A stretch of 64,000 nucleotides of DNA from an uncultured Clostridia bacterium (GTDB lineage Bacteria > Bacillota > Clostridia > TANB77 > CAG-508), in NCBI GenBank assembly GCA_947590905.1, contig CANQCU010000003.1:18968-82967 (forward strand). Direction: 5' to 3'. The notes below the pieces were generated by a model. The model searched no databases, was not told the origin of the DNA, and saw only the letters and a list, made by a program, of their open reading frames with translations. This document shows positions 19,703 through 41,453 of the stretch, one piece after another (positions within the stretch are counted from its first letter, which is position 1; the number at the start of each line of letters is the position of its first letter). The translations under genes were made by a program, and so were the position numbers.

Positions 19703-19742
19703 ACGGATATCCGTTGACTTTTACTTTTTAAGATGTTATAAT
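19703..19742 (+). promoter_or_regulatory. sigma-A promoter TTGACT-N17-TATAAT with an overlapping 12-bp perfect palindromic operator ACGGATATCCGT
   Basis: Read directly: palindrome at 19703-19714, -35 box at 19714-19719, -10 box at 19737-19742. Confidence 0.45.
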
Positions 19743-19910
19743 GGCGTAGTATATAAATTTGTATATAAATTAGCATTAGAAAAAATATTATTTTAGTGAA
19801 TTTTAGGCAGTACATTTATTCACACAATGGGAATGTATTGTCTTTTTTTAGATTTTATTATCTAAAAATGTAGTATAGTATTCTTTGTATATTTTTTTTG
19901 ATATAATACT

Positions 19911-19928
19911 TGGGAAAATAGACTATTT
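19911..19928 (+). repeat. copy 1 of the conserved motif TGGGAAAATAGACTATTT, just downstream of a TGnTATAAT-like -10 and upstream of the 175-aa ORF
   Basis: Near-identical to the motif at 21621-21639 upstream of brxA. Confidence 0.5.
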
Positions 19929-19937
19929 GAAAGGAGT

Positions 19938-20465
19938 ATGATTTATGTGATAACTATTACTAATGGAAAGGAAAAATTTACAATTAAAAAGAATAAGTTG
20001 TGGGAACGGAAAGAGTTTTTTAAAGGATTAGCAACAAAGTTTAAATATTCATATTGGGGAATAGAACTCTTATTTGTTAAAAAAGGTATAGGCAAGTTTG
20101 AAAAGATAATTAAATGTCTTCCAGATGGAGATGACATAGATAAAGAATATATAAATCTTGATAATAAACAAAGAAATTATATTCTTTTAAATGATGATGA
20201 CTATGCAGAAGTAAAAATGCTTTATGATAATATGAATACTGATATTGATTATAGAAAAGAAGCATATATTGAATCAACTTCAATATTATTTGCTTATGAA
20301 TTATATCAAAATCATATTTTAGAAGATGATACTGATGTTGATCCAGATGACATATTTTATAATTGGATAAATCAAAATTATTGTTATAAAAACTATAAAG
20401 AAGAAATATATGCAAAGGCTAAAAAGATATTGAAAGAAAAATATAATGTAGAAAACATATTATAG
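19938..20465 (+). CDS. hypothetical protein (175 aa), first gene of the cargo
   Basis: ORF preceded by aaggag. The in-frame GTG at 19947 has better RBS spacing than the ATG at 19938. No recognised domain. Confidence 0.35.
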   Translation: MIYVITITNGKEKFTIKKNKLWERKEFFKGLATKFKYSYWGIELLFVKKGIGKFEKIIKCLPDGDDIDKEYINLDNKQRNYILLNDDDYAEVKMLYDNMNTDIDYRKEAYIESTSILFAYELYQNHILEDDTDVDPDDIFYNWINQNYCYKNYKEEIYAKAKKILKEKYNVENIL

Positions 20466-20489
20466 TTAAATAGAAATGGAGTAGTAAAA

Positions 20490-21125
20490 ATGGAAGTAAA
20501 ATATATATTATTACTGATTATTGTAATTTTAATAGGTATTATTATTTATTTGATAGAACAATTAAAAAAAGCAAAAGAAGAAAATAATATTTTAATGAGC
20601 AATATTAAAATGGCAAAAAATAGAGAAGAAGATTATAGGCGTGAAAACGAAAGACTTAATTGGACTATGGAAATCAAAAAACGAACTAAAAAAGAAACAC
20701 CCAAAGAGCAATATACATCAAATAAGAATTTGAAAGTTCTTATTGGAGATTACAATAAATTAACGGTCACTAATACTAATTTAGTAATAGAAAGTTTAGG
20801 ATTAGAAACTGATATAGTTCAAAGTGGAGAAGATATAATAGAAAGAATACAAGATGGTGCAAAATATGATGTTATTATAACTAATAATGTTTATAGGGGA
20901 CATTTAGGAGGTCCAAATGTTTTGGACAAGTTAAAAGCAATGGAAAATTTTGATACACCTGTGATAATCTTAACAGTGGATCAAGATAAAAGAGATTATT
21001 ATATAAATAGTTGTGGATTTGATGAATATATACCAAAGCCATTAGATATAGAAAAAGCACAAACTGCATTAAAAAATGTAATACCTGGATTAAAGTTTAA
21101 AAAAATTAAAAGCAATAAATCATAG
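20490..21125 (+). CDS. membrane-anchored receiver-like (CheY-fold) protein with no output domain; Asn replaces the phospho-acceptor Asp
   Basis: N-terminal TM helix, then a charged coiled coil. The receiver-like block has the conserved Thr (PVIILTVD) and Lys (EYIPKPLD). At the expected acceptor position the sequence is DVIITNNVY, so Asp is replaced by Asn. Confidence 0.4.
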   Translation: MEVKYILLLIIVILIGIIIYLIEQLKKAKEENNILMSNIKMAKNREEDYRRENERLNWTMEIKKRTKKETPKEQYTSNKNLKVLIGDYNKLTVTNTNLVIESLGLETDIVQSGEDIIERIQDGAKYDVIITNNVYRGHLGGPNVLDKLKAMENFDTPVIILTVDQDKRDYYINSCGFDEYIPKPLDIEKAQTALKNVIPGLKFKKIKSNKS

Positions 21126-21130
21126 TTGGT

Positions 21131-21577
21131 TTATTGCTTTTTTCTACCTAGCAATTCATCAATAGAAAATGGTTGATATATTTTAGTAAGATTATATAAA
21201 AATGCAGTAGGTATAAGATTATGAGCATTTTCATAATGAGCATAGGCTGCTTGTGTTGTATTTATTTTTTTAGATACTTGTAGTTGTGTTAAATTATGCT
21301 TTTTTCTAATGAGGCGTAAGTTTTTGCCGATTAAGTTCAAGTCTATTTTTAAAGGTAAATAATCTATATTGTTGTTTGTAAGACCAAATAAATAATCTAA
21401 ACTAAAATTATAATGATTTGCATAATCAATTAGTCTTCTTAAAGGTATTGTGTCTTTGCCAGTCTCCCAACCTGACACAGTTGAAAAATTAACATTAAAT
21501 AAATCAGCAATATCTTTTTGTTTAATGTCTAACATCTCTCTACTTTCTTTTAGATTTTTGATTCGCATTGTACTCAC
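21131..21577 (-). CDS. XRE-family regulator with two tandem helix-turn-helix domains, divergent from brxA
   Basis: HTH 1 is IKQKDIADLFNVNFSTVSGWETG. HTH 2 is LIRKKHNLTQLQVSKKINTTQAAYAHYENA. Confidence 0.6.
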   Translation of the reverse strand: MSTMRIKNLKESREMLDIKQKDIADLFNVNFSTVSGWETGKDTIPLRRLIDYANHYNFSLDYLFGLTNNNIDYLPLKIDLNLIGKNLRLIRKKHNLTQLQVSKKINTTQAAYAHYENAHNLIPTAFLYNLTKIYQPFSIDELLGRKKQ

Positions 21578-21620
21578 CCGAATATTATTATTTCATTAAC
21601 TTGTGCTTATATTATTTTTC

Positions 21621-21639
21621 TGGGGAAAATAGACTATTT
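21621..21639 (+). repeat. copy 2 of the motif TGGGGAAAATAGACTATTT, in the brxA promoter region; a partial third copy TAGACTATTTTTC lies at 21705-21716
   Basis: Same sequence and same placement as copy 1: immediately 3' of a TATATTAT -10-like box. Confidence 0.5.
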
Positions 21640-21790
21640 TTTTTAAAAAATAATTCTAAAAGTGAGAATAATTGTTCATATAAAATAAAATTCTTGCGAA
21701 TAATTAGACTATTTTTCTTCAAATGCTTTTCAATTATAAACATATATGTTATAATTATTTTGTTGAAATTTCTTGAAAAAAGGAGGAAAT

Positions 21791-22387
21791 ATGGAAGATT
21801 ATAGTGCCAAATTAACAGGTGAGCCATTTTTATATAACGAAACAAAAATTATTGGTAGATACTTGTTAGATGGAGAAAACGAAGCAGAATTAAAAAGGCG
21901 AAATATTGAAGAAAATCTTATTAAACATAAAAAAACAGGTAGTGTTAAAAGAGTTAATGCTCCTATATTTAGAAGACTTAATGTAATGAGTAAAGAAATG
22001 CTTGAAGAATTTGTTTGTTCGGATATTGAAACAAGTAAATGTATCTTGTTATATGCCATAATGAAAACTGATAGACTTGTAAAAGATTTTATATTTGAAG
22101 TCTATAAAGATAAGTTGTTTATGAGAAAAGAATATATTGAAAAGTTTGATATAGATAACTGGTATGAAGAAAAATGTATATTAAGTGAAACACTTAAAAA
22201 TAGAAGTGAAACAACAACTGCAAAATTAAAACAAGTAATAATGAAAATATTGCAAGATTCAGGATTAGTAATAAAAGAAAAAGATAGATTTAAAATAGTT
22301 AGACCTTTATTAAAAGAAAAATATATAAATATGCTTGATAAAAATGGAGATTTAGAATATGCGAAAGCAATAGGAGGGTTGTTATGA
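21791..22387 (+). CDS. brxA: BREX protein BrxA (DUF1819)
   Basis: About 198 aa. The N-terminus YSAKLTGEPFLYNETKIIGRYLL matches the conserved BrxA start YSARLT.G.F. First gene of a canonical type 1 BREX order. RBS AAGGAGG lies 8 nt upstream of the ATG at 21791. Confidence 0.75.
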   Translation: MEDYSAKLTGEPFLYNETKIIGRYLLDGENEAELKRRNIEENLIKHKKTGSVKRVNAPIFRRLNVMSKEMLEEFVCSDIETSKCILLYAIMKTDRLVKDFIFEVYKDKLFMRKEYIEKFDIDNWYEEKCILSETLKNRSETTTAKLKQVIMKILQDSGLVIKEKDRFKIVRPLLKEKYINMLDKNGDLEYAKAIGGLL

Positions 22388-22959
22388 TGAAAAGCATAAA
22401 TACTAGATTACAAGAAATGACAAATAAATTAAGTAGTAATGAGTTGTTTGAATCAAATGGTCTAGGAAATGAAATTAACTTCCATATATTTGACTATGAT
22501 CCAGAAGATGAATATATAGTAAGAGAATATTTAGAAAATTACTTACTGAAAAAAAGTAAACTGAATATAAAAGTATTTGATATATACGATATTATTATTG
22601 AAATATTAAAAGAAAAAGGTTTTCTTGAAAAATGCTTTGACTATGAAAATAAAAAAGGAGCAAAAGCCTTAAATAGTCTTATTTCAAAAACTGTGGGAAT
22701 TGGCTCTGGAAATGATTTGATAATGAAAAAAATAAAAAGCGAAATAGAGCCTAATCAAATAATTTTAATAACAGGAATTGGGAAGTGTTATGGAATTGTA
22801 AGAGGACATACAATATTGAATAACTTACATAGTGTAGTTACGAATAATCCTTTGATAATGTTCTATCCAGGAACATACAATGGACAAAGTTTTCAACTAT
22901 TTGATAAATTAGAAAATGATAATTATTATAGAGCATTCCAATTTGTAGGAAGAAAGTAG
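22384..22959 (+). CDS. brxB: BREX protein BrxB (DUF1788)
   Basis: 191 aa. Its start ATGATGA overlaps the brxA stop. Size and position fit BrxB. Confidence 0.6.
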   Translation: MMKSINTRLQEMTNKLSSNELFESNGLGNEINFHIFDYDPEDEYIVREYLENYLLKKSKLNIKVFDIYDIIIEILKEKGFLEKCFDYENKKGAKALNSLISKTVGIGSGNDLIMKKIKSEIEPNQIILITGIGKCYGIVRGHTILNNLHSVVTNNPLIMFYPGTYNGQSFQLFDKLENDNYYRAFQFVGRK

Positions 22960-22969
22960 GAGGAGTAAA

Positions 22970-25900
22970 ATGGATGATTTAAAGAAAATATATGCAAAAG
23001 ATATTGAAAGAGAAATACAAGGAGTTATTAAAGTTGATGATGAAAGTTATATCAGTCAAGAATTAGAAGAATATGTAGTTACAGAAGAATTATTAAAACA
23101 TTTTAATAGTTTCTTTGACGCATATAATGCAGGTATAAATGGAAATACTGAAAAAATGGGAGTATGGATTTCTGGTTTCTTCGGTAGTGGTAAATCTCAC
23201 TTTTTAAAAATCATATCTTATTTATTAGAAAATAAAGTAGTTAATGGTAAGGCAGCAGTTGATTATTTTGATGACAAAATAGAAGATAAAATGCTACTTG
23301 CAGATATAAAAAGAGCAGGAAGTATTCCAACAGATGTAATCTTATTTAATATTGATTCTAAAACAGAAAATAGTAATGGAACAAAAGATAGAATACTTGA
23401 TGTTTTTGAAAAAGTATTTAATGAAAAAATGGGATTATCTATTACACCATTTGTTGCAGAAATTGAAAGACATATTATTAGTCAAGGTAAGTATGAAGAA
23501 TTTAAAAAAGCATTTGAAAGTAAAGCAAATAACTCTTGGGAAGAAATGCGTGATGGTATTCAATTTGTAGAAGATGAATTTGCAAGTGCTTATGCCGAAG
23601 TATTAGGTAAATCAGAAGAAGAAGCAAGAAATATTGTTGAAAGAACAGAAAAAAATTATACTTTATCAGTAGAAAAATTAGCAGAAAGAATAAGAGATTA
23701 CATTAAATCAAAAGGAAATAATCATCATATTGTATTCCTAGTAGATGAAATAGGACAATACATTGGAGATGATAGAAGTTTAATGTTAAATCTTCAAACA
23801 ATAGTAGAAGATTTAGGACTTGAATGTGGTGGAAAGGCTTGGGTAATCGTTACAAGTCAAGAAGCAATAGATGATGTCGTAAAAGTACAAGGAAATGACT
23901 TTTCTAAAATTCAAGGAAGATTTGATACTAAACTTTCTTTATCAAGTTCTGATATAGATGAAGTAATTAAGAAAAGAATATTAGACAAAACAGAAGAAGC
24001 AACTACAAGTTTAAAAATGATTTATGAAAAAGAAGAATCTATTATTAGAAACTTATTAACATTTAAGAATGCAACATATCAAAAAGTATATGAAGATAGT
24101 ACAGATTTTGCAGAAACATATCCATTTATTCCTTATCAATTTAAGTTATTACAAGATGTATTTACTGATATAAGAAAACACGGTTATGCAGGAAAACACT
24201 TATCAAGTGGAGAAAGATCACTACTAGGAGCATTCCAAGAAACTGCCAAAAGATTTGGAGATAGTGAAATAGGTACAATTATACCTTTCTATGCTTTCTA
24301 CGATACTATTGAACAATTCCTAGAACATCAAGTAAAAATAGTTATTAAAACTGCTATGGATACAGTTCAAAGTGGAGAATTAAAAGATATAGATGTAGAA
24401 GTATTAAAAATGTTATTTATGCTAAAAAACATTAAAGAAATACCTGCTAATATTGATAATCTATCTACTTTATATGTATCTAATATAAAAGATGACAAGA
24501 TTTCTATTAAAAAGGAAATAGCAGATTCTTTAAGAAGATTAGAGGCACAAACTTTAATTCAAAGAAACAATGATGAATATAAATTTTTAACTGATGAAGA
24601 ACAAGAAATAAATAGAGAAATAAAACAAATATTTATTGACCAAAATAGAAAAATTGATTATTTAAAAAGAATTGTTTTTGATTATATACTTACAGATAAT
24701 AAGTTTACTTATAAGAATAAACAATTCCCACTTACTAAATACATAGATAATATTAAATATTCACAAGAATATGAAATAGGTATTAGAGTAGTCACTTCAT
24801 CTCCTGAACAAGATGACACAGAAATCATTATGCAATCTGCAAGAGAAAATAAATATGTATTTGTTAAACTTGAAATATCTACTTTAATCTATGATGAAAT
24901 AACTAATTATTTACAAGTAGAAGAATATAGAAGAAGTAAAAGTGGAGTATTCCAAACACAACAAGTTGAAGATATTATAAGAGCAAAACAAAGAGAAATA
25001 GAAAAAGCAGAAGATATAATTAGAGAAAATATTAAAGAACAATTAAATGAAGCAGAAATTATTATTGCAGGAGATAGACAAAATATAAGTGCAAAAGAAG
25101 CAAAAGCAAGAGTAAATGAAGCATTAGAAATTCTAATCAATAACATATATACAAAATTCACATACATCAAACATAACTTTACTACACAAGACATTAGAGA
25201 GTTATTCCACGAAAATAGACAAAATATGTTAGGAAATGAAGTTGAATTTGTTAATCAAAAGGCTTATGACGCAATGAAAGAATATTGTGAAGAAAAAAAT
25301 GCTTTCAGTCTTCCTATGACAATTAGAACACTTTTACAAGACTTTGGAAATGCTCCTTACGGATTTTTAGATGAAGATATTTTATATATCTTAACTAGAT
25401 TATTAAAAGATGAAGTTGTATCTTTAATTTATAATAATGAAGTACAAAATATTACTTCCGAAGATACACTAACTAAAATATTAAAAAGAGATTATTATGA
25501 TAGAACAATAATAAAAATTAGACAAAAAATAGAGATAAACTTAATCAATGATTTAAAAGCCGTTGCAAGAAATGCTTTCAATGTAATCAATTTAAGAGAT
25601 GATGAAGATGGAATGGTTGAAGATTTTAAAGCAGAGTGTCTTCAAAGTACATTAAATAAATTAAATAAAATAGCAGGATACTATAATATTTCTGGAAGCA
25701 AATATCAATATCCTGGACAAGATGTAAAAGATGAAGCAACTAATTTAATGGAGAGATTATTAAAAATTAGAGATGTTGGAGAATTCTTTAAAGAAGTATC
25801 AAACTGTAAAGGAGTATTGGAAGAATTATCTCCAAAAATAGAAATGGTATTAGATTTCTTTGATGGAACACAAAAAGAACAATTTGATGAAGCCAGAAAA

Positions 25901-26497
25901 ATAATTATTATTTATGATAATAATAAGGACTACGCTGATAGAACAGAAGAACTTTCAAATGTAGTTGATAAAATTGTTTCTATATTAACATCTAGTGAGC
26001 CATATAGTGAAATACACGAACTACCAACATTAAGAAAAGACTTAATTGATTTACTTACACAAATGTATGATGTTAAATCAGAGCCAATTATTAAGATGAT
26101 AAATAATACTATTGAATATATTGAAAACGAAGTAAAACAAGCAGAAGTAGATGAAAACTTTGGAAAGAGATATATTGATACTTGCAAAAATGTTATTGAT
26201 ACATTAGAGCGTTCAAATGAATTAAAAGATATATTTGCACAACAAACTAGAATAGATCAATTAAAAGATAGTTTTATTACTGCATTAGAATATGAAAAGA
26301 GTAAGAAAAATGCTACTAACGAAGTAGGAGAAGTAATAGAAGAAAAAATTGTTAAGAGAACTATTATTAGAACTGATAGTTTAATGAATCGTACCTATGA
26401 AATAAATTCAAAAGAAGATATAGATAAATATGTAGAGGAGTTAAGAACTAAACTATTAAAAGAGTTTGAAAAGAATAATAACTTAACAATTAGATAG
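22970..26497 (+). CDS. brxC: BREX ATPase BrxC/PglY
   Basis: 1175 aa. Walker A motif GFFGSGKSHFLK near the N-terminus, as in BrxC. Large alpha-helical C-terminus. Confidence 0.8.
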   Translation: MDDLKKIYAKDIEREIQGVIKVDDESYISQELEEYVVTEELLKHFNSFFDAYNAGINGNTEKMGVWISGFFGSGKSHFLKIISYLLENKVVNGKAAVDYFDDKIEDKMLLADIKRAGSIPTDVILFNIDSKTENSNGTKDRILDVFEKVFNEKMGLSITPFVAEIERHIISQGKYEEFKKAFESKANNSWEEMRDGIQFVEDEFASAYAEVLGKSEEEARNIVERTEKNYTLSVEKLAERIRDYIKSKGNNHHIVFLVDEIGQYIGDDRSLMLNLQTIVEDLGLECGGKAWVIVTSQEAIDDVVKVQGNDFSKIQGRFDTKLSLSSSDIDEVIKKRILDKTEEATTSLKMIYEKEESIIRNLLTFKNATYQKVYEDSTDFAETYPFIPYQFKLLQDVFTDIRKHGYAGKHLSSGERSLLGAFQETAKRFGDSEIGTIIPFYAFYDTIEQFLEHQVKIVIKTAMDTVQSGELKDIDVEVLKMLFMLKNIKEIPANIDNLSTLYVSNIKDDKISIKKEIADSLRRLEAQTLIQRNNDEYKFLTDEEQEINREIKQIFIDQNRKIDYLKRIVFDYILTDNKFTYKNKQFPLTKYIDNIKYSQEYEIGIRVVTSSPEQDDTEIIMQSARENKYVFVKLEISTLIYDEITNYLQVEEYRRSKSGVFQTQQVEDIIRAKQREIEKAEDIIRENIKEQLNEAEIIIAGDRQNISAKEAKARVNEALEILINNIYTKFTYIKHNFTTQDIRELFHENRQNMLGNEVEFVNQKAYDAMKEYCEEKNAFSLPMTIRTLLQDFGNAPYGFLDEDILYILTRLLKDEVVSLIYNNEVQNITSEDTLTKILKRDYYDRTIIKIRQKIEINLINDLKAVARNAFNVINLRDDEDGMVEDFKAECLQSTLNKLNKIAGYYNISGSKYQYPGQDVKDEATNLMERLLKIRDVGEFFKEVSNCKGVLEELSPKIEMVLDFFDGTQKEQFDEARKIIIIYDNNKDYADRTEELSNVVDKIVSILTSSEPYSEIHELPTLRKDLIDLLTQMYDVKSEPIIKMINNTIEYIENEVKQAEVDENFGKRYIDTCKNVIDTLERSNELKDIFAQQTRIDQLKDSFITALEYEKSKKNATNEVGEVIEEKIVKRTIIRTDSLMNRTYEINSKEDIDKYVEELRTKLLKEFEKNNNLTIR

Positions 26498-26514
26498 TAA
26501 AAGGAGATAAGCAG

Positions 26515-27168
26515 ATGAATAAAAAAGAAAAATTACAAAAATTGATAGAAAAAGGAAAAGAGTTTATAGGGAAGAATTTAACACACAATGATTCACATTT
26601 TTGTGCTTGGAATGCCTCTGTAATTAGGTTTATTGAAAATGAATTTGGAGTTAATTCAACAGATGCAAAGCGATTAAAAGGAAGACTTTATCAACCATCT
26701 GCTTATGCACCTGGGGCAGATAATCAAAGTTTATTTGTAAAATATTTTGAAAGAGATTTAAGTAAAACATTAGAAGAATTAGAAATGATTTTTGATGATA
26801 TAGAAGAAAATAATTTTCAAGGAGAAAAGAATTTTCAAGAAGAAAAGAAAAATATTGGAGGAACAACAATTAATTTTAACATTGATAACAGCAATACGAA
26901 TACAAATACTACAAACATCAATATTTCATTTGAAAAATTAAAAGGAGATATTGAGAATGATTCATCTATTGTAAATGAGGATAAAATAGAAATATTAAAT
27001 AAATTAGATGAAATTAAAAATATACAATTAAGCAACATTCCTAAAAAGGAAAAGTGGATAACAATAAAGAAAATACTTATATTTTTACTAGATAAAGGAG
27101 TAGATTTTGCTATTGCATATTTACCACAAATATTATTACTACTTAAAATGGGAGGTATAAATGGATAA
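26515..27168 (+). CDS. uncharacterised 217-aa protein embedded in the BREX operon between brxC and pglX, with a C-terminal hydrophobic helix
   Basis: RBS aaggagataagcagatg. Its stop overlaps the pglX start (translational coupling). Asn/Thr-rich low-complexity middle. No recognised domain. Confidence 0.4.
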   Translation: MNKKEKLQKLIEKGKEFIGKNLTHNDSHFCAWNASVIRFIENEFGVNSTDAKRLKGRLYQPSAYAPGADNQSLFVKYFERDLSKTLEELEMIFDDIEENNFQGEKNFQEEKKNIGGTTINFNIDNSNTNTNTTNINISFEKLKGDIENDSSIVNEDKIEILNKLDEIKNIQLSNIPKKEKWITIKKILIFLLDKGVDFAIAYLPQILLLLKMGGING

Positions 27169-30721: not shown

Positions 30722-30732
30722 GAGGATAGATT

Positions 30733-33276
30733 ATGTTTGATGAAGTATTACAACTATTAAATGATACTTTAAATGGTGCTTTTTCAAGAGATACAGAAAG
30801 AAAAAGAACTAGAAAAATTATATTCTGGTATGATTCTAAACAAGAATATCTTGATTTTATCAATGAACTAGAATTAGACAATACAGAAATATTAAAGTAT
30901 GATAACAATAGTTTTTGGATTAGATACCATATAGAAAAAGAAGAACTTAATAAGAATATTATTATCTATCTTCCTTTTGAAAGAAAAAAAGGTATAGATA
31001 ATGACTTATTAGATTTAGAAACTGCAAATAGTGATTTATTGTTTAATCCAGATTCAACAACAATGAGATTAAAGAATTTAGGTTTAACAGATGATGAAAG
31101 AAATATAATTAAAAAATATTCAAAATTCTTTGGAAATAAGAAAAGAGAAACGGAATTTAAAAACTTTGATATTGATGAAAAGAATGCAAATAATATAGAT
31201 TTAATTATTACAGCAATAATGCTTAATATTAAGTCTATCAATGAAGATGATATTTTAAAGGAAATTATTAGATTTTATTTTGAAGATGAGAAAAAGTATG
31301 AAGAATTATTTAAGTATGGAAGCGAAGAATTTATATTAGAATTGTTTAATAATACTTTTGGATCAGATGTAAAATCTTATAAAGATTTGCCAGAAATATA
31401 TAAATCATTAGTATTTACTTATTTCGCAACAAGTTTAAAAGAGCCAAAGAAAGCAAGTAGATATAGTAAATATATACTAACTAAAAAAACTACTAATATA
31501 TATGTTTTCTTAAATAATTTAATGAGAGATAAGACAATGAAATCTTATTTTGAACACTTATCAAAAGAAATAGAAAAAGAATTTGGAATAAATGAATTAT
31601 TACAATCAATGGATATAGATGATTACATTTCAAGTGACGCTTTTGAAAGCATAGATAGATGTGTAATAAAATACATTGTTGATAAATTATTTAATGGAAT
31701 AGGAGAATATGATTTATATTCTAATTATATTGATACAAGAGAAAGTAAATATTGGTTTGATAAATTAGAAAACGAGTATAACTTATTAAAAGTTTCAATA
31801 ACATTCTTTGAAAAGATTAAAGAAATAGAAGACAAAATAAAAATAGAAGATATTGATTTATTTGCTAAAAATTATACAGAAATATTTAGCGAGATAGATA
31901 CATTATATAGAAAAGTTTACTTTTACTATGACAGTATAGAAGACAAAGATATATTTATCAATTTAAAGAACAAAATAGAGAATATCTATGTTAATGACTT
32001 TATGAGCGAATTATCTATTAAATGGAGTGATACGATAGAAAATATGAATAAATATGATTCTAATCGTATGACATTACAAAAAGATTTTTACAAAAATTAT
32101 ATTAAGCCATTTAACGATAAGAAAGATAGAATTATTGTTATAATTTCAGACGCTTTTAGATATGAATGTGCAAAAGAATTAAATAATAGACTAAAAGTAT
32201 TTGCTAGTAAATCCGATATAAAATATATGCAAGGACTTGTTCCATCATATACTAAACTTGGTATGGCAGCATTACTACCAAATAAGGAATTAGAAAGAGT
32301 TAAAGATAGTGATGATATTTTAGTTGATGGACAACCTTCTGCCAGTCTTAATGATAGAGAGTTAATATTACAAAAAGAGAATCCAGATTCTATTGCTATA
32401 AAGTATGATGACTTATATGAAATGACTAAACTTGAATGGAAAAAAGTTTTTTCTGGTAAAAAGATAGTTTATATTTATCACGATACCATAGATAATGCAG
32501 GAGAACATAACGAGAATACAATATTCACTGCTTGTGATAAAGCAATAAATGAATTAGAAAAGTTAATAAAAGATTTACATACTACTTTTAGTGGAATAAA
32601 TGCTTTTATAACTGCCGATCACGGATTCTTTTATAAAAGAGGAAAAGTAGAAAGCTATGAAAAAACAAGTAAGACTACAAATGCTACAAAACAAAAAACT
32701 AGATATTCTTATTCAGATAGTATTTCAAATGATGAGGGAATTTTATCTATCAATCTTGATTATGTATTTGGTAGTAATAGTGGGTATGTAAATATTCCAA
32801 AAGGTAATATTATATTTGCTAGACAAGGAACAGGAATAAATTATGTTCACGGTGGCATACTTCCACAAGAAATAATTGTTCCAGTTATAGACTTTAAATC
32901 AACAAGAACAAGTGATGATAGTAAAAAGGTTGGTATTACTTATAGTGGACTTACTGCTAAAATTACAAATGCTATTACTTATTTAGAGTTTTTACAAGAT
33001 AATAACATAGATGAAAATAACAAGCCTTGTAGATACCTATTACATTTTGAAGATGAAGATGGAAATAGAGTTTCTGATGAATGTACTATTATAGCCAATT
33101 ATGAAAATACAGAAGTAAAAGATAGATTCTTTAAAGAAAAGTTTGTATTTAAAAATATTGAATATGATAGAACAAAACCTTATTATTTAGTAATTATAGA
33201 TGAAGAAACTGGTATAGAAGCAAATAGAGTCAAATTCTATATTGATATTGCCATTGTAAATAATTTTGATTTTTAG
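30733..33276 (+). CDS. pglZ: BREX alkaline-phosphatase-superfamily protein PglZ
   Basis: 847 aa. PglZ-domain signature (IVIISDAFRYECAKEL). Position after pglX. Confidence 0.75.
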   Translation: MFDEVLQLLNDTLNGAFSRDTERKRTRKIIFWYDSKQEYLDFINELELDNTEILKYDNNSFWIRYHIEKEELNKNIIIYLPFERKKGIDNDLLDLETANSDLLFNPDSTTMRLKNLGLTDDERNIIKKYSKFFGNKKRETEFKNFDIDEKNANNIDLIITAIMLNIKSINEDDILKEIIRFYFEDEKKYEELFKYGSEEFILELFNNTFGSDVKSYKDLPEIYKSLVFTYFATSLKEPKKASRYSKYILTKKTTNIYVFLNNLMRDKTMKSYFEHLSKEIEKEFGINELLQSMDIDDYISSDAFESIDRCVIKYIVDKLFNGIGEYDLYSNYIDTRESKYWFDKLENEYNLLKVSITFFEKIKEIEDKIKIEDIDLFAKNYTEIFSEIDTLYRKVYFYYDSIEDKDIFINLKNKIENIYVNDFMSELSIKWSDTIENMNKYDSNRMTLQKDFYKNYIKPFNDKKDRIIVIISDAFRYECAKELNNRLKVFASKSDIKYMQGLVPSYTKLGMAALLPNKELERVKDSDDILVDGQPSASLNDRELILQKENPDSIAIKYDDLYEMTKLEWKKVFSGKKIVYIYHDTIDNAGEHNENTIFTACDKAINELEKLIKDLHTTFSGINAFITADHGFFYKRGKVESYEKTSKTTNATKQKTRYSYSDSISNDEGILSINLDYVFGSNSGYVNIPKGNIIFARQGTGINYVHGGILPQEIIVPVIDFKSTRTSDDSKKVGITYSGLTAKITNAITYLEFLQDNNIDENNKPCRYLLHFEDEDGNRVSDECTIIANYENTEVKDRFFKEKFVFKNIEYDRTKPYYLVIIDEETGIEANRVKFYIDIAIVNNFDF

Positions 33277-33287
33277 GAGGTGCAGTA

Positions 33288-35318
33288 ATGGAAGAACTTA
33301 ATGAAAAGTTAAATAAATATTTTGCAGGAAAAGTTGTAAGAAAAGATTTAACTAAAAAAATTAAAGAGGGAGCAAATGTACCTGTCTATGTTCTTGAATA
33401 CTTACTTGGTATGTACTGTGCTACTAATGATGAAAATGCAATTCTTGATGGTGTAGAAACAGTTAAGAAGATATTAGCAGATAACTTTGTAAGACCAGAT
33501 GAAGCAGAAAAAATAAAATCTAAAATAAAAGAAAAAGGTATTTATACAATTATAGATAAAGTAACGGTAAGACTTAATGAGAAATTAGATTTATACCAAG
33601 CAGAGTTTTCTAATTTAGGAATAAAAGACGCTTCTATAAGTGAAGAAATTGTTAATAAATATGAAAAACTTTTAGTTGGTGGTATATGGTGTATTATTAA
33701 AGTTAGTTATAACTATGATGACCAAGATAGACATAAAATGCCTTTTAAAGTAGCAAGTCTTGATCCAATACAACTTCCAAATATGGATTTAACTGGCTTG
33801 TTTGATGGAAGAAAACATTTTACAAAAGAAGAATGGATTGATATTTTAGTTCGTTCTATGGGAATAGAGCCATCAAAACTTACTGAAATACAAAAGTGGC
33901 ATTTTCTTGAAAGAGCAGTACCACTTGTAGAGAATAATTATAATCTATGTGAACTAGGTCCGAGAGGAACTGGTAAGTCACATATCTATAAAGAAATATC
34001 TCCAAATAGTATTTTAGTATCTGGTGGACAAACTACTGTTGCTAATTTGTTCTATAATATGGGACAAAAGAAAATAGGTTTAGTAGGTATGTGGGACTGT
34101 GTTGCTTTTGATGAAGTAGCAGGTATTACATTTAAAGATAAAGATGGAATCCAAATAATGAAAGATTATATGGCTTCTGGATCATTTGCAAGAGGAAAAG
34201 AAGAAAAAAATGCAAATGCTTCTATGGTATTTGTAGGGAATATAAATCAAAGTGTTGAAGTATTATTAAAAACATCACATTTATTTGAGCCATTCCCAAA
34301 AGAGATGGCAAATGATTCTGCTTTCTTTGACAGAATGCACTTTTATCTTCCTGGTTGGGAAATTCCTAAAATGCGACCAGAGTTAATAACAGATGAATAT
34401 GGATTTATTACAGACTATTTATCAGAATATTTTAGAGAAATGAGAAAAAGGACTTTTTCAGATTCACTAGATAAATACTTTAAATTAGGAAATAACTTAA
34501 ATCAAAGAGATGTTATAGCAGTTAGAAAGACAGTTTCTGGTTTAGTTAAATTGTTATATCCAAATGGAGAATATAGTAAAGAAGAACTTGAAGAAATACT
34601 TGCCTATGCTTTGGTAGGAAGAAGACGAGTAAAAGAACAATTAAAGAAAATAGGTGGTATGGAGTTCTATGATGTTCACTTTTCTTATATTGATTTAGAA
34701 AGTATGGAAGAAAAATTTATTTCAGTACCAGAAAATGGTGGTGGAAAACTTATTCCAGAGGGAATGCTTAAAGCAGGGCATACTTACTTTATAGGTAGAG
34801 GAACATCTGGAATGATAGGAACATATAAAATTGAAGTAGAATCTCCAAGTGGACACGGTAAATTTTCAGTTTCTGGCGTAGGTAATGATAGAGAAACAAA
34901 AGAAGCATTAAATACAGCATTTAATTATTTTAGAGCAAACAAAAAAAGTATAAGTGCTAGTATTCAAGTAGATAATGTTGATTATTTACTACATATTGAA
35001 GATTTACAAGGAGTAGGTGCTTCAAAAGATATATCTCTTGCTTCATTTGTTGCAATGTGTAGTAGTGCTTTGAAGAAACCTATACAAGGTAGTTTAGTCA
35101 TATTAGGTAGTATGAGTATAGGTGGAACAATTAGTAAAGTAGAAGAAATAGCCAATACTTTACAAGTATGTTTTGATTCAGGTGCTAAAAAAATATTACT
35201 ACCAATGTCTTCTGCTAGTGATATATCAAGTGTACCTAGTGACTTATTTTCAAAGTTTAACATAGCATTTTATAATGATCCAGAAGACGCAGTATATAAA
35301 GCATTAGGTATAGAATAA
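33288..35318 (+). CDS. brxL: BREX Lon-like protease BrxL
   Basis: 676 aa. Conserved BrxL N-terminus (VVRKDLTKKIKEGANVPVYVLEYLLGMYC). AAA/Lon-like Walker A (GPRGTGKSH). Lon-protease-like C-terminal domain. Confidence 0.75.
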   Translation: MEELNEKLNKYFAGKVVRKDLTKKIKEGANVPVYVLEYLLGMYCATNDENAILDGVETVKKILADNFVRPDEAEKIKSKIKEKGIYTIIDKVTVRLNEKLDLYQAEFSNLGIKDASISEEIVNKYEKLLVGGIWCIIKVSYNYDDQDRHKMPFKVASLDPIQLPNMDLTGLFDGRKHFTKEEWIDILVRSMGIEPSKLTEIQKWHFLERAVPLVENNYNLCELGPRGTGKSHIYKEISPNSILVSGGQTTVANLFYNMGQKKIGLVGMWDCVAFDEVAGITFKDKDGIQIMKDYMASGSFARGKEEKNANASMVFVGNINQSVEVLLKTSHLFEPFPKEMANDSAFFDRMHFYLPGWEIPKMRPELITDEYGFITDYLSEYFREMRKRTFSDSLDKYFKLGNNLNQRDVIAVRKTVSGLVKLLYPNGEYSKEELEEILAYALVGRRRVKEQLKKIGGMEFYDVHFSYIDLESMEEKFISVPENGGGKLIPEGMLKAGHTYFIGRGTSGMIGTYKIEVESPSGHGKFSVSGVGNDRETKEALNTAFNYFRANKKSISASIQVDNVDYLLHIEDLQGVGASKDISLASFVAMCSSALKKPIQGSLVILGSMSIGGTISKVEEIANTLQVCFDSGAKKILLPMSSASDISSVPSDLFSKFNIAFYNDPEDAVYKALGIE

Positions 35319-35732
35319 GTTTTAACAAATAATATGGAGAGGTAATATTGATAAAACTTTAATTATATAATGAAATGAACGCACAAATTGTAAGTATTTG
35401 TGTGTTTTTTTAATTTTTTATATCAGTACAACACAATCCGACATTTTTTTCGCAAACATTGTCGTACAATGTATTTTAGTAACATTGCCTACGGCTATGT
35501 AATTAAAGAATAATAAAGGGGTAGTGATAAGAAATAGAAAGGTTGTGGTGTAGTTTATATTCTATTTCAAATAATACATTACAGGCTTAATTTGTAGTAA
35601 TAGATGATACAAAGTTTTTAGTAGTATTTTGCTTTTGTATTTATAGGCAATGTCTTGTTGGGAGAGATTGTCTATGAGAGTAAGAAAATACTATGTAATT
35701 TGCATAGAAAAATTAAGAATCATTGAACGAGT

Positions 35733-35782
35733 CAAATTCAACTCTATTAGCAGAGGAGGATTTGACTCTTTTTTTTATAGTG
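35733..35782 (+). terminator. intrinsic terminator/attenuator upstream of the sigma-like gene
   Basis: Hairpin GAGTCAAAT ... ATTTGACTC followed by TTTTTTTTAT. Confidence 0.4.
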
Positions 35783-35869
35783 TAAGTAAACATTTAAGTA
35801 ACGGGTGTAGAGGTCCTCCTTTTATCAATTTGTTTTTAAAAAAATTCAAATTGATAGGAGGAAAGAAAG

Positions 35870-36346
35870 ATGGCAGAACGCCCAAAGAGAAGAAAATATA
35901 AGGATAATCCTTATACATTAAGTTATGTTGAAGAAAAAAATATTTATTTAGTAAGTTTTAAAGATGGCAATGGAATAAAACAAGTAATAGAAGTTAATGA
36001 GGAAATCTATAAAATATTTAATTCATTTGAATTACAAGATTTAAAAGAATTAAATGAGTATGATAGACATATAGAACATTCAGAATTATTTGAAAATACT
36101 CTTGAAATGAAAGCAAAGGACAAGCCTATTAGTGTAGAAGACCAAATAATTAAAAAAGCAACTTTTGACGAATTACAAAGAGCAATAAATAGTTTGCCAG
36201 AAACACAAAGAAGAAGAATAAAAAAATATTACTTTGCTGAAAAAAATGAATATGAAATAGCCAAAGAAGAACACACAACGCAACAAGCAGTAAATAAATC
36301 TTTAAGACTTGCAATTCAAAAATTAAAAGAAATTTTAAAAAAATAA
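35870..36346 (+). CDS. sigma-70 region-4-like HTH regulator (Tn916 Orf7-like)
   Basis: The C-terminus QRRRIKKYYFAEKNEYEIAKEEHTTQQAVNKSLRLAIQKLKE has a sigma region 4 HTH pattern. Position before xis-int as in Tn916. Confidence 0.5.
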   Translation: MAERPKRRKYKDNPYTLSYVEEKNIYLVSFKDGNGIKQVIEVNEEIYKIFNSFELQDLKELNEYDRHIEHSELFENTLEMKAKDKPISVEDQIIKKATFDELQRAINSLPETQRRRIKKYYFAEKNEYEIAKEEHTTQQAVNKSLRLAIQKLKEILKK

Positions 36347-36559
36347 AAAAGTAGGGTTGTTATTTTAATTTTAAGTGAGGAAACAAGTGAAAGGGTACAA
36401 AACTCTTTCAACCTGTTTCTTCTTTTTTTGTGGAAGCAGGAGCGTTCTTTGAAAATTTGATATTCATTCATCAAATACTTTCCTGTTAGAGATAGCACAT
36501 TAACAAGTACGCTTGTCGGTAAAATGCTTGGTTATAAAATTAGGTAGCACCTAATTTGC

Positions 36560-36720
36560 GAAGACATCTAATAGTATTAAAGATACTCCTGCCTAGCCAC
36601 AGACTCACGCAATGGGGGCAGCCACGAGAGATCCTCGGGGAGGTGGAATTCCTGTGAGATTGAATAGCAATCAATCGTTTGATGAAATCCTAGGCTGAGG
36701 GTATTGAGAAAAATATCAGT
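36560..36720 (+). ncRNA. candidate structured RNA / cis-regulatory leader (GC-rich, nested complementary segments)
   Basis: Nested pairs GCCTAG(36590)/CTAGGC(36691) and CTCAC/GTGAG, with GC-rich internal hairpins, in an otherwise AT-rich non-coding stretch. An intrinsic terminator follows, then an RBS. Confidence 0.3.
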
Positions 36721-36750
36721 TGACTAAAAAATAAAAATGAAAATAACAAA

Positions 36751-36780
36751 GTCAGAGTATAGATTACTCTGGCTTTTTTA
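36751..36780 (+). terminator. intrinsic terminator directly upstream of the RBS of the small ORF/mazF pair
   Basis: Hairpin CAGAGTA-tagat-TACTCTG followed by GCTTTTTTA. Confidence 0.5.
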
Positions 36781-36800
36781 CATATAAGGAGGATTTTTTA

Positions 36801-37004
36801 ATGAAAAGAAAAAAATATAAAGTTAAAGTTAAATTGATATTTGAAACTACTATGGATCATTCACAAGAAAGTATGGAAAAAGCAGAGCAAGATGTTAAAA
36901 GAGTTCTAAACGATTATTTAAAAGATAAAAAACTTAATATACTTAATCTATTTGAAAATGAGCCACCACGAATAATATGCAAGGCAGAAAAATATGATAG
37001 ATAA
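36801..37004 (+). CDS. small basic protein (67 aa) overlapping the mazF start by 11 nt; candidate non-canonical antitoxin or Tn916 Orf8-like protein
   Basis: RBS AAGGAGG. Stop overlaps the mazF start. No resemblance to MazE/PemI/AbrB-type or RHH antitoxins that I can recognise. Confidence 0.3.
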   Translation: MKRKKYKVKVKLIFETTMDHSQESMEKAEQDVKRVLNDYLKDKKLNILNLFENEPPRIICKAEKYDR

Positions 37005-37401
37005 TTATGATATTAGAAAGGGAAATATTTATTATGCAAATCTTGATCCTGTAATAGGAAGTGAGCAAGATGGAAAAAGACCAGTGGTGGTTGTTCAAAA
37101 CAATGTTGCTAATAAACATAGCCCAACAATTATAATTGCACCAATTACAACAGTAATAAAGAAAATATATCTGCCAACACATATCATTATATATAAAAAT
37201 GCTTTTTTAAAAAAAGATTCAACTATTTTAGTAGAACAAGTTAGAGTAATAGATAAAACAAGATTATTAACTTATTTAGGAAAACTAACAGATGACCAAA
37301 TAAGAAAATTAGATAAGGCTTTAATAAATGCCTTTGATATAAATATTGAAAGAGAGGGAGATAATTGCAACTATTTAAAAGTAAAGATAAAGGATATGTA
37401 G
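36994..37401 (+). CDS. mazF: MazF/PemK/EndoA-family endoribonuclease toxin
   Basis: Strong resemblance to B. subtilis EndoA/NdoA: GNIYYANLDPVIGSEQDGKRPVVVVQNNVANKHSPTIIIAPITT...KTRL. Confidence 0.8.
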   Translation: MIDNYDIRKGNIYYANLDPVIGSEQDGKRPVVVVQNNVANKHSPTIIIAPITTVIKKIYLPTHIIIYKNAFLKKDSTILVEQVRVIDKTRLLTYLGKLTDDQIRKLDKALINAFDINIEREGDNCNYLKVKIKDM

Positions 37402-37568
37402 TGACTATTATTTCAAATAATAACAAGCAAGAAGTACAAGTAAAAGCAAAAAATAAAAATAGTGCAAAAGAAATGGTTATAAATGTGCTTTTAAAATGTG
37501 ATTTGTTTGGAATAAACAGTTTAGATGATATTAAATTAGAATGTAGAAGAATAAGGAGGGAAGTTTAA
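37365..37568 (+). CDS. hypothetical small protein overlapping the mazF 3' end
   Basis: 67-aa ORF. No recognised domain. Confidence 0.25.
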   Translation: MQLFKSKDKGYVVTIISNNNKQEVQVKAKNKNSAKEMVINVLLKCDLFGINSLDDIKLECRRIRREV

Positions 37569-37801
37569 TGGATGAAATGATTTATTCAGTACACGAAGTT
37601 GCTAAAATGTTGCATTCAAGTCCTAACTATGTTTATAAACTAATTGATAATGGATTTCTTCCTGCTATAAAATTAGGTAGTGTTAAAATATTAAAATCTA
37701 CCTTAATAAAGTTTTTAATGGAGAATGAGGGAAAAGACCTTTCTGATATAAATAATATAAAAAAAATAGAAATTAGTTCACTGGTGAAGTCAAATGGCTA
37801 G
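37568..37801 (+). CDS. xis: excisionase-like HTH protein (Xis)
   Basis: 77 aa. HTH (YSVHEVAKMLHSSPNYVYKLIDNG). Immediately upstream of and overlapping the integrase gene. Confidence 0.5.
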   Translation: MDEMIYSVHEVAKMLHSSPNYVYKLIDNGFLPAIKLGSVKILKSTLIKFLMENEGKDLSDINNIKKIEISSLVKSNG

Positions 37802-39074
37802 TGTTGGAATAAAAAAAAGAGGAAAGGTATATCAATATCAATTTGAAATAGCACCTGTTAATGGACAAAGGAAATGGATAACAAAATCTGGATTTAAAAC
37901 AAAGGCAGAAGCAGAGGAAGAAGGTAATAAGGCTTATACAGAATACTTAAATGCAGGAGTGCCTTTTAAAGAATGCAAAACTTCATATACAGATTATTTA
38001 GACTATTGGTTAAATAATTATTGCAAGACAAACTTAAAATACAATACGATACAAGCATATAAAAATATCATAGAAAAACATATAATACCTAAATTAGGTA
38101 AATATAGATTATCTACGATAACAAGTGTAAGGTTAAATTCTTATATTACTGAAATAGTGGAAGAAAATGATTTTGCTCCTGCGTATTTTAAAAATATATT
38201 AAAGGTATTAAAAGGATCATTTCGTGACGCTTGTGATATATATGGTTTTATTAAATATAATCCTGCCAGAGATTTAAGACTACCAAGATTTGATAAAAGG
38301 AGAGAGGATGTAAAACATTTATATACACAAAAAGAAATAGATTTAATATTAAATAAATTTGCAGACAATGACACATTTACTTGTGTCTTTTTAACTTCTT
38401 GCTATACTGGTATGAGAACAGGAGAAGTATGTGCTTTAACTTGGAATGATATTGATTTTGAAAAAGAAACTATAAACATAGAACACAATGTATATGACAA
38501 GCCAAAAGATGATAAAGGTAGATGGTTTATAGGAACTACTAAAACTGAAACAGGAACTAGAAAAATTCATTTAAGTCAAACATTAAAAATTGCATTACAA
38601 AATTATAAAAGAAAACAAGATTATTTAAAGAAAATATATGGTAAAAAATATATATATTATCACATTGAAAATGTTACGAATCAATCTGGTAAAGTTGTAG
38701 AGCATAGAATAGTAAGAGAAGAATTAAGCAATAAAGATTCTGAAAGAATAGATTTGATTTTCACAAAAGAAAATGGTCTTTATCTTGGAACTGATATTAC
38801 AAGAACACCATTTAAAATAATTCATAATGAGTTAGGAATTAAAAAGTGTAGATTTTATGATTTAAGAGGTAGTTATGCAACTAAAATATTAAATAATGGA
38901 GTTGAGATAAGAGATGTTGCTGATTTACTTGGACATAAGAATATAGAAACAACAGAAAACTTCTATATATCAAGTACAGAAAATTCAAGAAAATATGCAA
39001 CAGAAATATTTGATAGTATTTCAAAATCGGAAACTATAAATAAGATTATAGAGTATAAAATTGATTTGGAATAA
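37794..39074 (+). CDS. int: tyrosine site-specific recombinase / integrase
   Basis: 426 aa. C-terminal catalytic region with R...HxxR and LLGHKNIETTENFY (the tyrosine is in FYI). N-terminal SAM-like/arm-binding part. Confidence 0.8.
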   Translation: MASVGIKKRGKVYQYQFEIAPVNGQRKWITKSGFKTKAEAEEEGNKAYTEYLNAGVPFKECKTSYTDYLDYWLNNYCKTNLKYNTIQAYKNIIEKHIIPKLGKYRLSTITSVRLNSYITEIVEENDFAPAYFKNILKVLKGSFRDACDIYGFIKYNPARDLRLPRFDKRREDVKHLYTQKEIDLILNKFADNDTFTCVFLTSCYTGMRTGEVCALTWNDIDFEKETINIEHNVYDKPKDDKGRWFIGTTKTETGTRKIHLSQTLKIALQNYKRKQDYLKKIYGKKYIYYHIENVTNQSGKVVEHRIVREELSNKDSERIDLIFTKENGLYLGTDITRTPFKIIHNELGIKKCRFYDLRGSYATKILNNGVEIRDVADLLGHKNIETTENFYISSTENSRKYATEIFDSISKSETINKIIEYKIDLE

Positions 39075-39234
39075 TCTGTGGATTCATTGACTATAAGTAT
39101 TAAATATTATATAATAATGAAGAATGTCAAATGTGCGACATCTTTTATCGCAGATTTGTTTCTTCTATATTATTATAGTAGAATAATTGCAGTGAACGGA
39201 TGTGGACAATGTCCACAGTTTGTCCACGTTAGAG

Positions 39235-39345
39235 AAATACTTATAGTACAGATAGTACAGATAATACACATAATACAGATGATACCTAATACCGAAATAC
39301 AATAAATACAGATAATACTATAAGTACAAATAATACTGATAATAT
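39235..39345. repeat. degenerate tandem about 11-bp repeats (TACAGATAATAC-like) just 3' of int; candidate arm-type integrase binding sites / right end of the ICE
   Basis: Units are visible directly: tacagatagta, cagataataca, cataatacaga, ...acagataatac.... The region is riddled with stops in all frames. Confidence 0.4.
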
Positions 39346-39346
39346 A

Positions 39347-39409
39347 GGAAAATCAAGTTCTTGTGGTAGTGGTAAAAAGTATAAAAATTGTTGCGGGAAG
39401 AATGCTTAA
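39347..39409 (+). pseudogene. short remnant of a SEC-C-motif protein C-terminus (…CGSGKKYKNCCGKNA*)
   Basis: Translation of 39347-39409 gives ENQVLCGSGKKYKNCCGKNA. The SEC-C metal-binding motif lacks its upstream part. This is a possible target-site remnant at the ICE junction. Confidence 0.3.
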
Positions 39410-39659
39410 ATAGCTTATTACAAGAATTTCAATAATTAAAAAAATAGGTGTCAAAAATCAATTTGTCACCTAAATTATAAAAATATAACTGAAAACTATT
39501 GAAAAACAAGGAGTGTATCCAAAAGAAAATGGATGACACTTCTTTTTCTATGAAAGAAATCAATATTTTTTGTAAAAATATTGAATATGAAGTTAAAAAA
39601 TGATACAATACAAATGTTCGCTAACAATATTAAAACAATTATACGAGGAGGGATATTTA

Positions 39660-40520: not shown

Positions 40521-40640
40521 ATACGGTAAAAGCTGAATATAAAATAATTAAAAGTAAGTATAAAAGAAAAAATAATGTTGGTATATAGGACATTCCGATT
40601 ATAATATAATTTAAATAAAGAAAATAAAGAGGAGTGTTTT

Positions 40641-41402: not shown

Positions 41403-41408
41403 TTATAA

Positions 41409-41453
41409 AAAGAGACAATGGACTGTGATATCACAGTCCATTGTCTCTTTTTG
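41409..41453. terminator. bidirectional intrinsic terminator (19-bp perfect stem)
   Basis: AAGAGACAATGGACTGTGA-tat-TCACAGTCCATTGTCTCTT followed by TTT. Lies between convergent genes. Confidence 0.6.

Follow-up and report, generated by a model that had tools for sequence, protein, structure and literature searches.

A stretch of 64,000 nt of contig CANQCU010000003.1 (positions 18,968 to 82,967) from an uncultured Clostridia bacterium, hereafter the window, carries a type 1 bacteriophage exclusion (BREX) operon set among genes for conjugation and site-specific recombination. The window has a G+C content of ~27% and nearly every gene lies on the plus strand, to which all coordinates given here refer unless the minus strand is stated. 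A previous reading of the letters alone (the sequence-only reading) had described the operon as cargo in the tet(M) position of an integrative and conjugative element (ICE) of the Tn916/Tn1549 family. Here we examine the operon, the slot that holds it and the element around both, using contigs and loci of relatives that are designated by L-numbers (L010, L179 and so on).

The operon begins with brxA (21791-22387; PADLOC BrxA 7.5e-49, Pfam PF08849 1.2e-42), brxB (22384-22959; PADLOC BrxB 9.2e-63, Pfam PF08747) and brxC, which encodes an ATPase (22970-26497; PADLOC BrxC 1248 bits, Pfam BrxC-domain, Walker A at residue 69). These are followed by pglX, for an N6-adenine methyltransferase (27161-30721; PADLOC PglX 1373 bits, Pfam Eco57I and MmeI_Mtase, NPPY at residue 486), pglZ (30733-33276; PADLOC PglZ 4.4e-234, Pfam PglZ 4.7e-50) and the Lon-like brxL (33288-35318; PADLOC BrxL 1150 bits, Pfam BrxL_ATPase 2.2e-145, Walker A). 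All six open reading frames (ORFs) are uninterrupted, and each gives a full-length match to its own PADLOC model (E 7.5e-49 to 0) and to a Pfam BREX family. Together with the catalytic motifs and the operon-like spacing, these matches bear out the claim that the six genes are intact and in canonical order. With six genes in the order A-B-C-X-Z-L on one strand and NPPY in PglX, the operon is assigned by gene content to type 1 BREX.

That inventory holds for the six genes, but it missed a seventh, optional one embedded in the operon. This gene (26515-27168, 217 aa) lies between brxC and pglX and overlaps pglX by 8 nt; from brxA to brxL, with this ORF included, the spacings are -4, 10, 17, -8, 11 and 11 nt. 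The 217-aa protein has no Pfam or NCBIfam match, and PADLOC offers one weak candidate, PDC-S35 (1e-11). Thirty-nine homologues were found, and both of the two that were looked up also sit between brxC and pglX. An AlphaFold2 model (predicted local distance difference test score 76.5) consists of two helical bundles with a disordered Asn-rich linker between them, for which Foldseek returned no match in the PDB at E < 1.

Sequence inspection shows a strong ribosome-binding site and a promoter-like site that serve the BREX operon, the latter 5' of brxA (21727-21755; TTTTCA-17-TATAAT with TG). Divergent from brxA, a regulator of the XRE family with tandem helix-turn-helix (HTH) domains is encoded on the minus strand (21131-21577; Pfam HTH_3 in two stretches, 2.2e-21); it has a GTG start, and an exact-protein look-up gave no recorded match. 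A terminator-like hairpin with a 12-bp stem and a T-run lies 3' of brxL (35377-35407). A gene for a SWIM zinc-finger protein of 371-385 aa is found directly 3' of brxL in L047 (6259-7374) and L193 (19182-20339) and is absent from this place in the window; the final 100 nt of the L047 gene are similar to window positions 19047-19146.

The operon lies in a variable slot with clear borders. In blastn comparisons, backbone homology with 12 relatives stops at 19722-19742 and returns at 35768-35835, which delimits a cargo insert of ~16 kb (19743 to ~35767). To its left, a candidate XRE-family repressor of 79 aa is encoded on the minus strand (19410-19649; Pfam HTH_26 1.3e-9); it is an Orf9 equivalent by position only, and its homologues in L014, L016 and L023 are 58-59% identical. 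The last piece of conserved backbone is an operator-promoter (19703-19742), in which the palindrome ACGGATATCCGT (19703-19714) overlaps the -35 hexamer TTGACT and an extended -10 box, TGTTATAAT, completes a promoter-like site (19714-19742) directed into the cargo. When four elements are aligned, conservation breaks off straight after the -10 box, from 19743 on. Paired substitutions in L016 and L023 preserve the symmetry of the 12-bp palindrome, which probably serves the 79-aa XRE protein as operator. Between this promoter and the BREX regulator lie an ORF of 175 aa (172 aa when the called start is used) with no family match (19938-20465) and a gene for a membrane-anchored orphan receiver-domain protein of 211 aa (20490-21125; Pfam Response_reg 4.3e-9). 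The receiver protein has an N-terminal transmembrane helix and a coiled coil and lacks an output domain, and no partner kinase is in view.

On comparative grounds BREX and its three neighbouring ORFs are accessory cargo, because relatives hold other genes between the same XRE/promoter and sigma/integrase blocks. The slot of L014 and L016 measures only 2.3 kb and contains two ORFs, while L047 (integrase 89% identical) has pglZ (87%), brxL (92%) and the SWIM protein at the same place. In L098 (VirB4 98%) it holds a group II intron reverse transcriptase and a PadR-like gene, together with a gene for Tet-type ribosomal protection (~70% identical to tet(O/32/O)) that leads directly into the integrase; a tet gene of this type is also present in L102. 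Monoglobus L196 carries tet(O/32/O)-tet(40) between its CHAP protein and sigma/PemK/integrase. The tet genes of all three (VirB4 80-98% identical) lie between hydrolase and sigma/integrase module, in agreement with the earlier notion of an accessory slot. L099 carries an APH kinase, and ABC transporters, a two-component system or a radical SAM enzyme are the cargo of more distant relatives. BREX is rare as cargo among ~80 relatives of the conjugation module. Relatives have a second variable spot directly upstream of the XRE gene: L023 holds a type III restriction-modification system and Abi_C there, and L016 (OZ007025.1, the 1.34-Mb chromosome of an uncultured Bacilli bacterium) a vanG/vanC-like cluster (18-5234) with VanW, D-Ala-D-Ala ligase, VanY, acyltransferase_3, alanine racemase and VanZ.

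Upstream of the slot lies a conjugation module. It opens with an SNF2 helicase (2410 aa, of which the window covers the C-terminal part) and a DUF3991/Toprim protein, followed by a NikA/MobC relaxosome accessory protein (4350-4679; Pfam NikA-like 8e-16, MobC 1.1e-5), a MobA/VirD2-type relaxase (6255-7607; Pfam Relaxase 3.9e-40), DUF3801 and ArdC-like proteins and a VirD4-type coupling protein of the CD1115 family (9455-11263; NCBIfam NF045973 538 bits, cut-off 250; Pfam T4SS-DNA_transf 1.3e-64). TrbC-like, TrbL-like and PrgI proteins, a VirB4 ATPase of the CD1110 family (14622-16955; NCBIfam NF045971 1049 bits, cut-off 325) and a membrane protein of 547 aa complete the series. We take CD1110 and CD1115 to be loci of the Clostridioides difficile element CTn4 (CD1091-CD1118), after which these NCBIfam families are named. 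The name CD1110 was not found in PMC3158075.

Pfam and NCBIfam support the VirB4, coupling protein, relaxase and MobC that had been listed upstream of the cargo, but not the CHAP hydrolase. The gene in question, the last of the conjugation module (16966-18609), encodes a candidate membrane-anchored cell-wall hydrolase that as a whole has no Pfam or NCBIfam match. Over its N-terminal 380 aa the hydrolase shares 36% identity with the protein annotated as CHAP that occupies this position in the Monoglobus element. The C-terminal domain differs: these 165 aa are weakly C39-peptidase-like (Pfam E 0.015; PDB 3erv E 0.2) with Cys and His motifs. Given the different domain and its sub-threshold C39-like signals, the CHAP identity was rejected. 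Relative to the Monoglobus CHAP protein, the catalytic domain of the hydrolase appears swapped.

To the right of the cargo, the backbone resumes with a small sigma-70 region-4 protein of 158 aa (35870-36346; Pfam Sigma70_r4_2 1.5e-7) that is Orf7-like by domain and position and conserved in relatives. There follow a pemK RNA motif (36577-36657; Rfam RF02913, 53.4 bits against a gathering score of 34.8), a putative antitoxin (67 aa) with a PemK/MazF toxin (135 aa; both within 36801-37401; Pfam PemK_toxin 4.4e-30), another ORF of 67 aa, an HTH_17 excisionase (37568-37801; Pfam 6.4e-10, TIGR01764) and a right-end tyrosine integrase of 426 aa, int-R (37794-39074; Pfam Phage_integrase, SAM_3, Arm-DNA-bind_4). 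The order sigma-PemK-integrase is kept even among distant relatives. The XRE gene with its promoter, the sigma gene and xis-int had been named as the flanks of the operon and are all present; the pemK RNA, the PemK/MazF pair, and the two cargo ORFs and tandem-HTH regulator (19938-21577) had gone unmentioned.

Past the integrase, three GTCCAC/GTGGAC repeats (39202-39227) are candidate arm-type recombinase sites. The 48 nt up to 39409 (39362-39409) encode SCGSGKKYKNCCGKNA and a stop codon, that is, the C-terminal SEC-C motif of SecA minus its first cysteine pair, and represent the displaced native secA 3' end and attR core. Homology to the window in 12 relatives found through the integrase (65-89% identity) stops at 39400-39412, the same SEC-C remnant lies 3' of the integrase in nearly all relatives, and related elements are preceded by an intact secA in L010, L036, L067 and others. 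Homology stop and remnant both place the right end of the ICE at 39409, the end coordinate already proposed.

The left end and the att sites, which the sequence-only reading had proposed to seek, were located at the 3' end of secA with the help of L179, a contig from another sample that differs from window positions 1-3714 by 5 mismatches and extends left to secA. From its left, L179 carries a ribosome hibernation factor, secA (829 aa, intact SEC-C), six GTCCAC/GTGGAC repeats (3028-3145), a second tyrosine recombinase, int-L (436 aa; 3218-4528, equivalent to ~window -13725 to -12415; 40% identical to int-R), ParA, ParB, a 240-aa ORF, a 910-aa SpaA adhesin, a sortase, three small ORFs and the SNF2 helicase. 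The whole element accordingly runs from ~-13975 (secA 3' end, off-window) to 39409, with positions 1 to 39409 inside the window. In the ICE-free relative L208, secA lies 0.8 kb from a homologue of the window gene at 42378, and window 39510-39625 resembles the spacer downstream of the L208 secA. Because of this comparison, which concerns a related species (secA 68% identical in nucleotides, neighbouring gene 88%) and gives synteny and not an exact attB, the DNA to the right of 39409 is considered native chromosome and the remnant the displaced end of secA. The ends and recombinase genes mark the element as specific for the 3' end of secA and show one recombinase on either side; its relaxase, coupling protein, VirB4 and integrase within one bounded unit class it as an ICE. 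A tRNA attachment site was considered and rejected, since a tRNA scan found none.

Several features of this neighbourhood deserve mention in their own right. In metagenome-assembled genomes (MAGs) of gut Bacillota, numerous elements with integrases, some related and others not, and tandem arrays among them, occupy the secA 3' end. The sheep MAG locus L064 shows a similar secA, int-L, ParAB and SpaA, and xis-int-R lies 43 kb off on the same contig (L050); these two loci hint at the same dual-integrase layout, with 20 kb between them outside view. Beyond the ICE and before the conserved chromosomal gene at 42378, positions 39660-42111 encode a Bro-N protein, a secreted SH3/CAP protein and a membrane protein of 213 aa on the minus strand, where the ICE-free relative has a 73-aa ORF only, and may be another small variable island. 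An exact-protein look-up of the Bro-N gene gave no recorded match.

How, then, is the region best read? Very probably it is the right-hand 39.4 kb of a single ~53.4-kb ICE at the 3' end of secA in an uncultured, low-GC member of the gut Bacillota, with a Tn1549/CTn4-like ("CTnRINT") backbone and BREX as its cargo; the same ICE including BREX was recovered from the assemblies of several samples. A number of points weigh against this. The left end, ~14 kb left of the window, was read from the near-identical L179 of another sample and not from the window's own contig. The designation "Tn1549-like" derives from NCBIfam families named after CTn4 genes and from the literature, not from the Tn1549 sequence. 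Excision and transfer of the element, as well as expression and activity of its BREX, are predicted from its genes. The operon's own promoter and the hairpin after brxL speak against tight coupling to ICE regulation. Lastly, the presence of two tyrosine recombinases, and of small elements of the L010 type, means that the ICE may be a fusion of two ancestors. L010 is a secA-linked element of ~7 kb that consists of an int-L-like gene (87%), one ORF and a sigma-toxin-antitoxin-xis-int-R module (88%) and has no type IV secretion system (T4SS).

L010 equally serves the argument that two secA-targeting elements lie here in tandem, namely a conjugative element with int-L and a non-conjugative island or integrative and mobilizable element (IME) made up of XRE, BREX, sigma, toxin-antitoxin, xis and int-R. 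The tyrosine recombinases do sit at opposite ends, int-L-type integrases adjoin secA in many elements, some with a different VirB4 (L057, L058), BREX stands directly beside secA in L189-L192, and tandem arrays at secA exist (L048, L078). True arrays of this kind keep their internal cores, however, and blastn-short and a six-frame SEC-C pattern found no such core between the two extremes. Clusters of the GTCCAC hexamer are likewise absent from the interior, the 81-kb composite having two only, beside secA (six copies) and at 39202-39227 (three). L010 itself is flanked by a single core pair. Moreover, L098 has a 98%-identical VirB4 and a 79%-identical int-R within 5.4 kb, and the distant relatives L127, L131, L134, L135 and L196 all show T4SS, hydrolase, cargo, sigma, PemK and integrase as one unit. 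We therefore regard a tandem pair as unlikely, and equally so its corollary that the int-L element (ParAB, adhesin, T4SS) could mobilise the island in cis; the core and hexamer scans agree with the initial view of a single element with no independent end between conjugation genes and xis-int. Still less probable is a decayed, immobile ICE, with BREX behaving like any other chromosomal defence island and its conjugation-gene neighbours there by chance. Mobility is indeed deduced from sequence, BrxL proteins at least 90% identical occur outside ICEs beside insertion sequences or other defence genes (L197-L201), and the BREX of L189-L192 adjoins secA without conjugation genes. Against decay, all conjugation, regulation and recombination ORFs examined are intact, both ends and the arm repeats are preserved, and the 98-99% identical backbone recurs in many samples with different pglX modules, as expected of a circulating element.

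In type 1 BREX, PglX methylates a short non-palindromic motif, and BrxABC, PglZ and BrxL block replication of unmethylated phage DNA. In a single BREX-bearing ICE, by analogy, PglX would methylate such a motif on both host and ICE DNA, and the BrxABC/PglZ/BrxL machinery would stop the replication of incoming unmethylated phage DNA. Conjugation would therefore install methylation together with exclusion in each recipient. From the anatomy of the locus, the divergent XRE regulator could control transcription from the operon's own promoter (21727-21755), perhaps with extra transcription from the conserved backbone promoter (19714-19742), and the hairpin after brxL would probably restrict read-through into sigma-xis-int. 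The operon had earlier been described as wired to the regulatory circuit of the element. The conserved operator-promoter facing the cargo lends that description some weight and makes coupling possible, whereas the separate promoter, the divergent regulator and the hairpin do not.

The junction between brxC and pglX varies among copies of the element. In other samples the backbone is 98-99% identical in nucleotides through the last base of brxC and divergent beyond it. L202 (16021-16658), L203 and L207 have a pair of genes for 75 and 136 aa in place of the 217-aa gene, and pglX is 75% identical in L202, the sole contig of the three to reach it. In L205 and L206 (6786-6800 in L206) the small gene is absent and pglX is 85-95% identical. 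Across sister copies the nucleotide identity of pglX is thus 75-95%, and it changes along with the small gene. BrxL falls in a 90% cluster of 646 members, whereas the PglX of the window is a singleton, which fits a fast turnover of the specificity module. One tentative interpretation, to which we give rather less than even weight, is that secA-targeting Tn1549-like ICEs of uncultured gut Bacilli with small genomes, a conserved family with a recombinase on either side and a recombination hot spot at the brxC-pglX junction, form a platform for BREX diversification. The small genes would then be swapped or lost, and PglX alleles swapped with them, on one 98-99% identical backbone, a scheme that is conceivable but somewhat doubtful. 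If it is true, several BREX specificities would coexist in one host population, all borne by the same mobile element, and the small junction genes could be previously unrecognised partners or modulators of PglX.

A related BREX with an accessory protein 64% identical to the 217-aa protein is found directly downstream of secA in L189-L192 (1766-20648). There, the accessory gene is separated from pglX by an inserted RhuM-family gene and two small ORFs, no conjugation genes are in view, and secA is apparently split into two ORFs.

BREX on ICEs is established (PMC11580459; PMC10201445), as is varied cargo in Tn1549-like elements of the gut (PMC2533590), and defence systems on ICEs and IMEs have already been surveyed (PMC10201445). 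A literature search gave no description of BREX on a Tn1549-like element; the two terms co-occur in one paper, unlinked. The locus adds that Tn1549-like gut elements, known for van, tet and transporter cargo, also bear a full set of genes for methylation-based phage exclusion. Because the cargo region of close relatives holds antibiotic-resistance genes, selection by phage and by antibiotics can act on the same vehicle. Its hosts are apparently uncultured gut Bacilli with small genomes, so that an element of 53 kb takes up much of the genome. In practical terms the locus is of modest use: it offers a defined attachment site (the 3' end of secA), a sharp cargo border at the conserved operator-promoter and natural variants of the pglX module, with which the specificity and the accessory genes of BREX could be explored. 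Of the side observations, the more interesting ones concern the secA-specific layout with two recombinases and the exchangeable junction of brxC and pglX.

The closest known elements include Tn1549 and the CTnRINT group (C. difficile CTn2, CTn4 and CTn5, and members in gut Firmicutes). They share with the ICE the CD1110-family VirB4, CD1115-family VirD4, MobA/VirD2 relaxase and MobC, the SNF2 helicase, adhesin and sortase, and a variable accessory region between T4SS/hydrolase and a sigma-like regulator with xis-int. The literature counts CTn2, CTn4 and CTn5 as Tn1549-like and describes diverse genes in the van-equivalent region of gut members (PMC2533590). A van-equivalent variable region upstream of sigma/xis-int is supported here by L014, L016, L047, L098, L102, L127, L131 and L196. 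The ICE departs from these elements in that it integrates specifically into the 3' end of secA and restores the end of that gene, in that its left end bears ParA/ParB and a second tyrosine recombinase, in the PemK toxin-antitoxin pair with pemK RNA between sigma and xis, and in having BREX as cargo in place of van or ABC transporter genes. L089 and L090 (sigma matches) and L178 (an Enterococcus faecium VirB4 match) were considered as Tn1549/Tn916 and rejected as other plasmids or elements. The element of Monoglobus pectinilyticus (NZ_OY725736.1) has a VirB4 80% identical and the same order of SpaA, SNF2, MobC, relaxase, VirD4, PrgI, VirB4, hydrolase, cargo, sigma, PemK, HTH proteins and integrase, but differs in its tetracycline-resistance cargo, a true CHAP domain and an integrase only 22% identical.

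Tn916 uses an FtsK-type coupling protein (orf21) and a Rep_trans-type relaxase (orf20), whereas the coupling protein and relaxase of the ICE are of the VirD4/TraG and MobA/VirD2 types. Both elements arrange their modules in the order conjugation, accessory/regulation and xis-int, and both have a leftward HTH repressor, a small sigma-like protein upstream of xis-int and an arm-binding N-terminal domain in Int. In Tn916, tet(M) (12185-14058) is followed by orf6, orf9, orf10, orf7, orf8, orf5, xis and int, with orf10 alone between orf9 and orf7 (PMC7288454). The proposed equivalence with the tet(M) position therefore fails when taken literally: tet(M) lies upstream of orf6 and orf9, whereas BREX lies downstream of the XRE gene, with 16 kb of cargo from XRE to sigma. 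Furthermore, no plasmid-borne integrase is more than 30% identical to int-R. Judged by conjugation genes, by Int/Xis kinship, by target choice (secA-specific here, of low specificity in the Tn916 family) and by gene arrangement, the ICE falls outside the strict Tn916 family; of the double name Tn916/Tn1549, the Tn1549/CTn4-like conjugation module is what remains. In substance the sequence-only reading is nevertheless right, since BREX occupies the accessory slot of a Tn1549-like ICE in which relatives have tet.

As for the cargo, the type 1 systems of Bacillus cereus H3081.97 and Escherichia coli HS agree with it in the six genes and their order, and in the NPPY motif of PglX, the P-loops of BrxC and BrxL and the PglZ domain. 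The operon of the window differs from canonical BREX in the additional 217-aa gene that is translationally coupled to pglX, and a tandem-HTH XRE protein takes the place of the WYL-type regulator BrxR described for other BREX systems (PMC9122589). The BREX of VchInd5, an SXT/R391 ICE of Vibrio cholerae, is a defence that moves along with conjugation and has a function shown by experiment (PMC11580459), whereas that of the window is known from its genes. VchInd5 belongs to an unrelated family (Gammaproteobacteria, MOBH/F-type T4SS, prfC site), yet like the ICE described here it holds a complete type 1 BREX in a variable hotspot, its hotspot 5 (PMC11580459).

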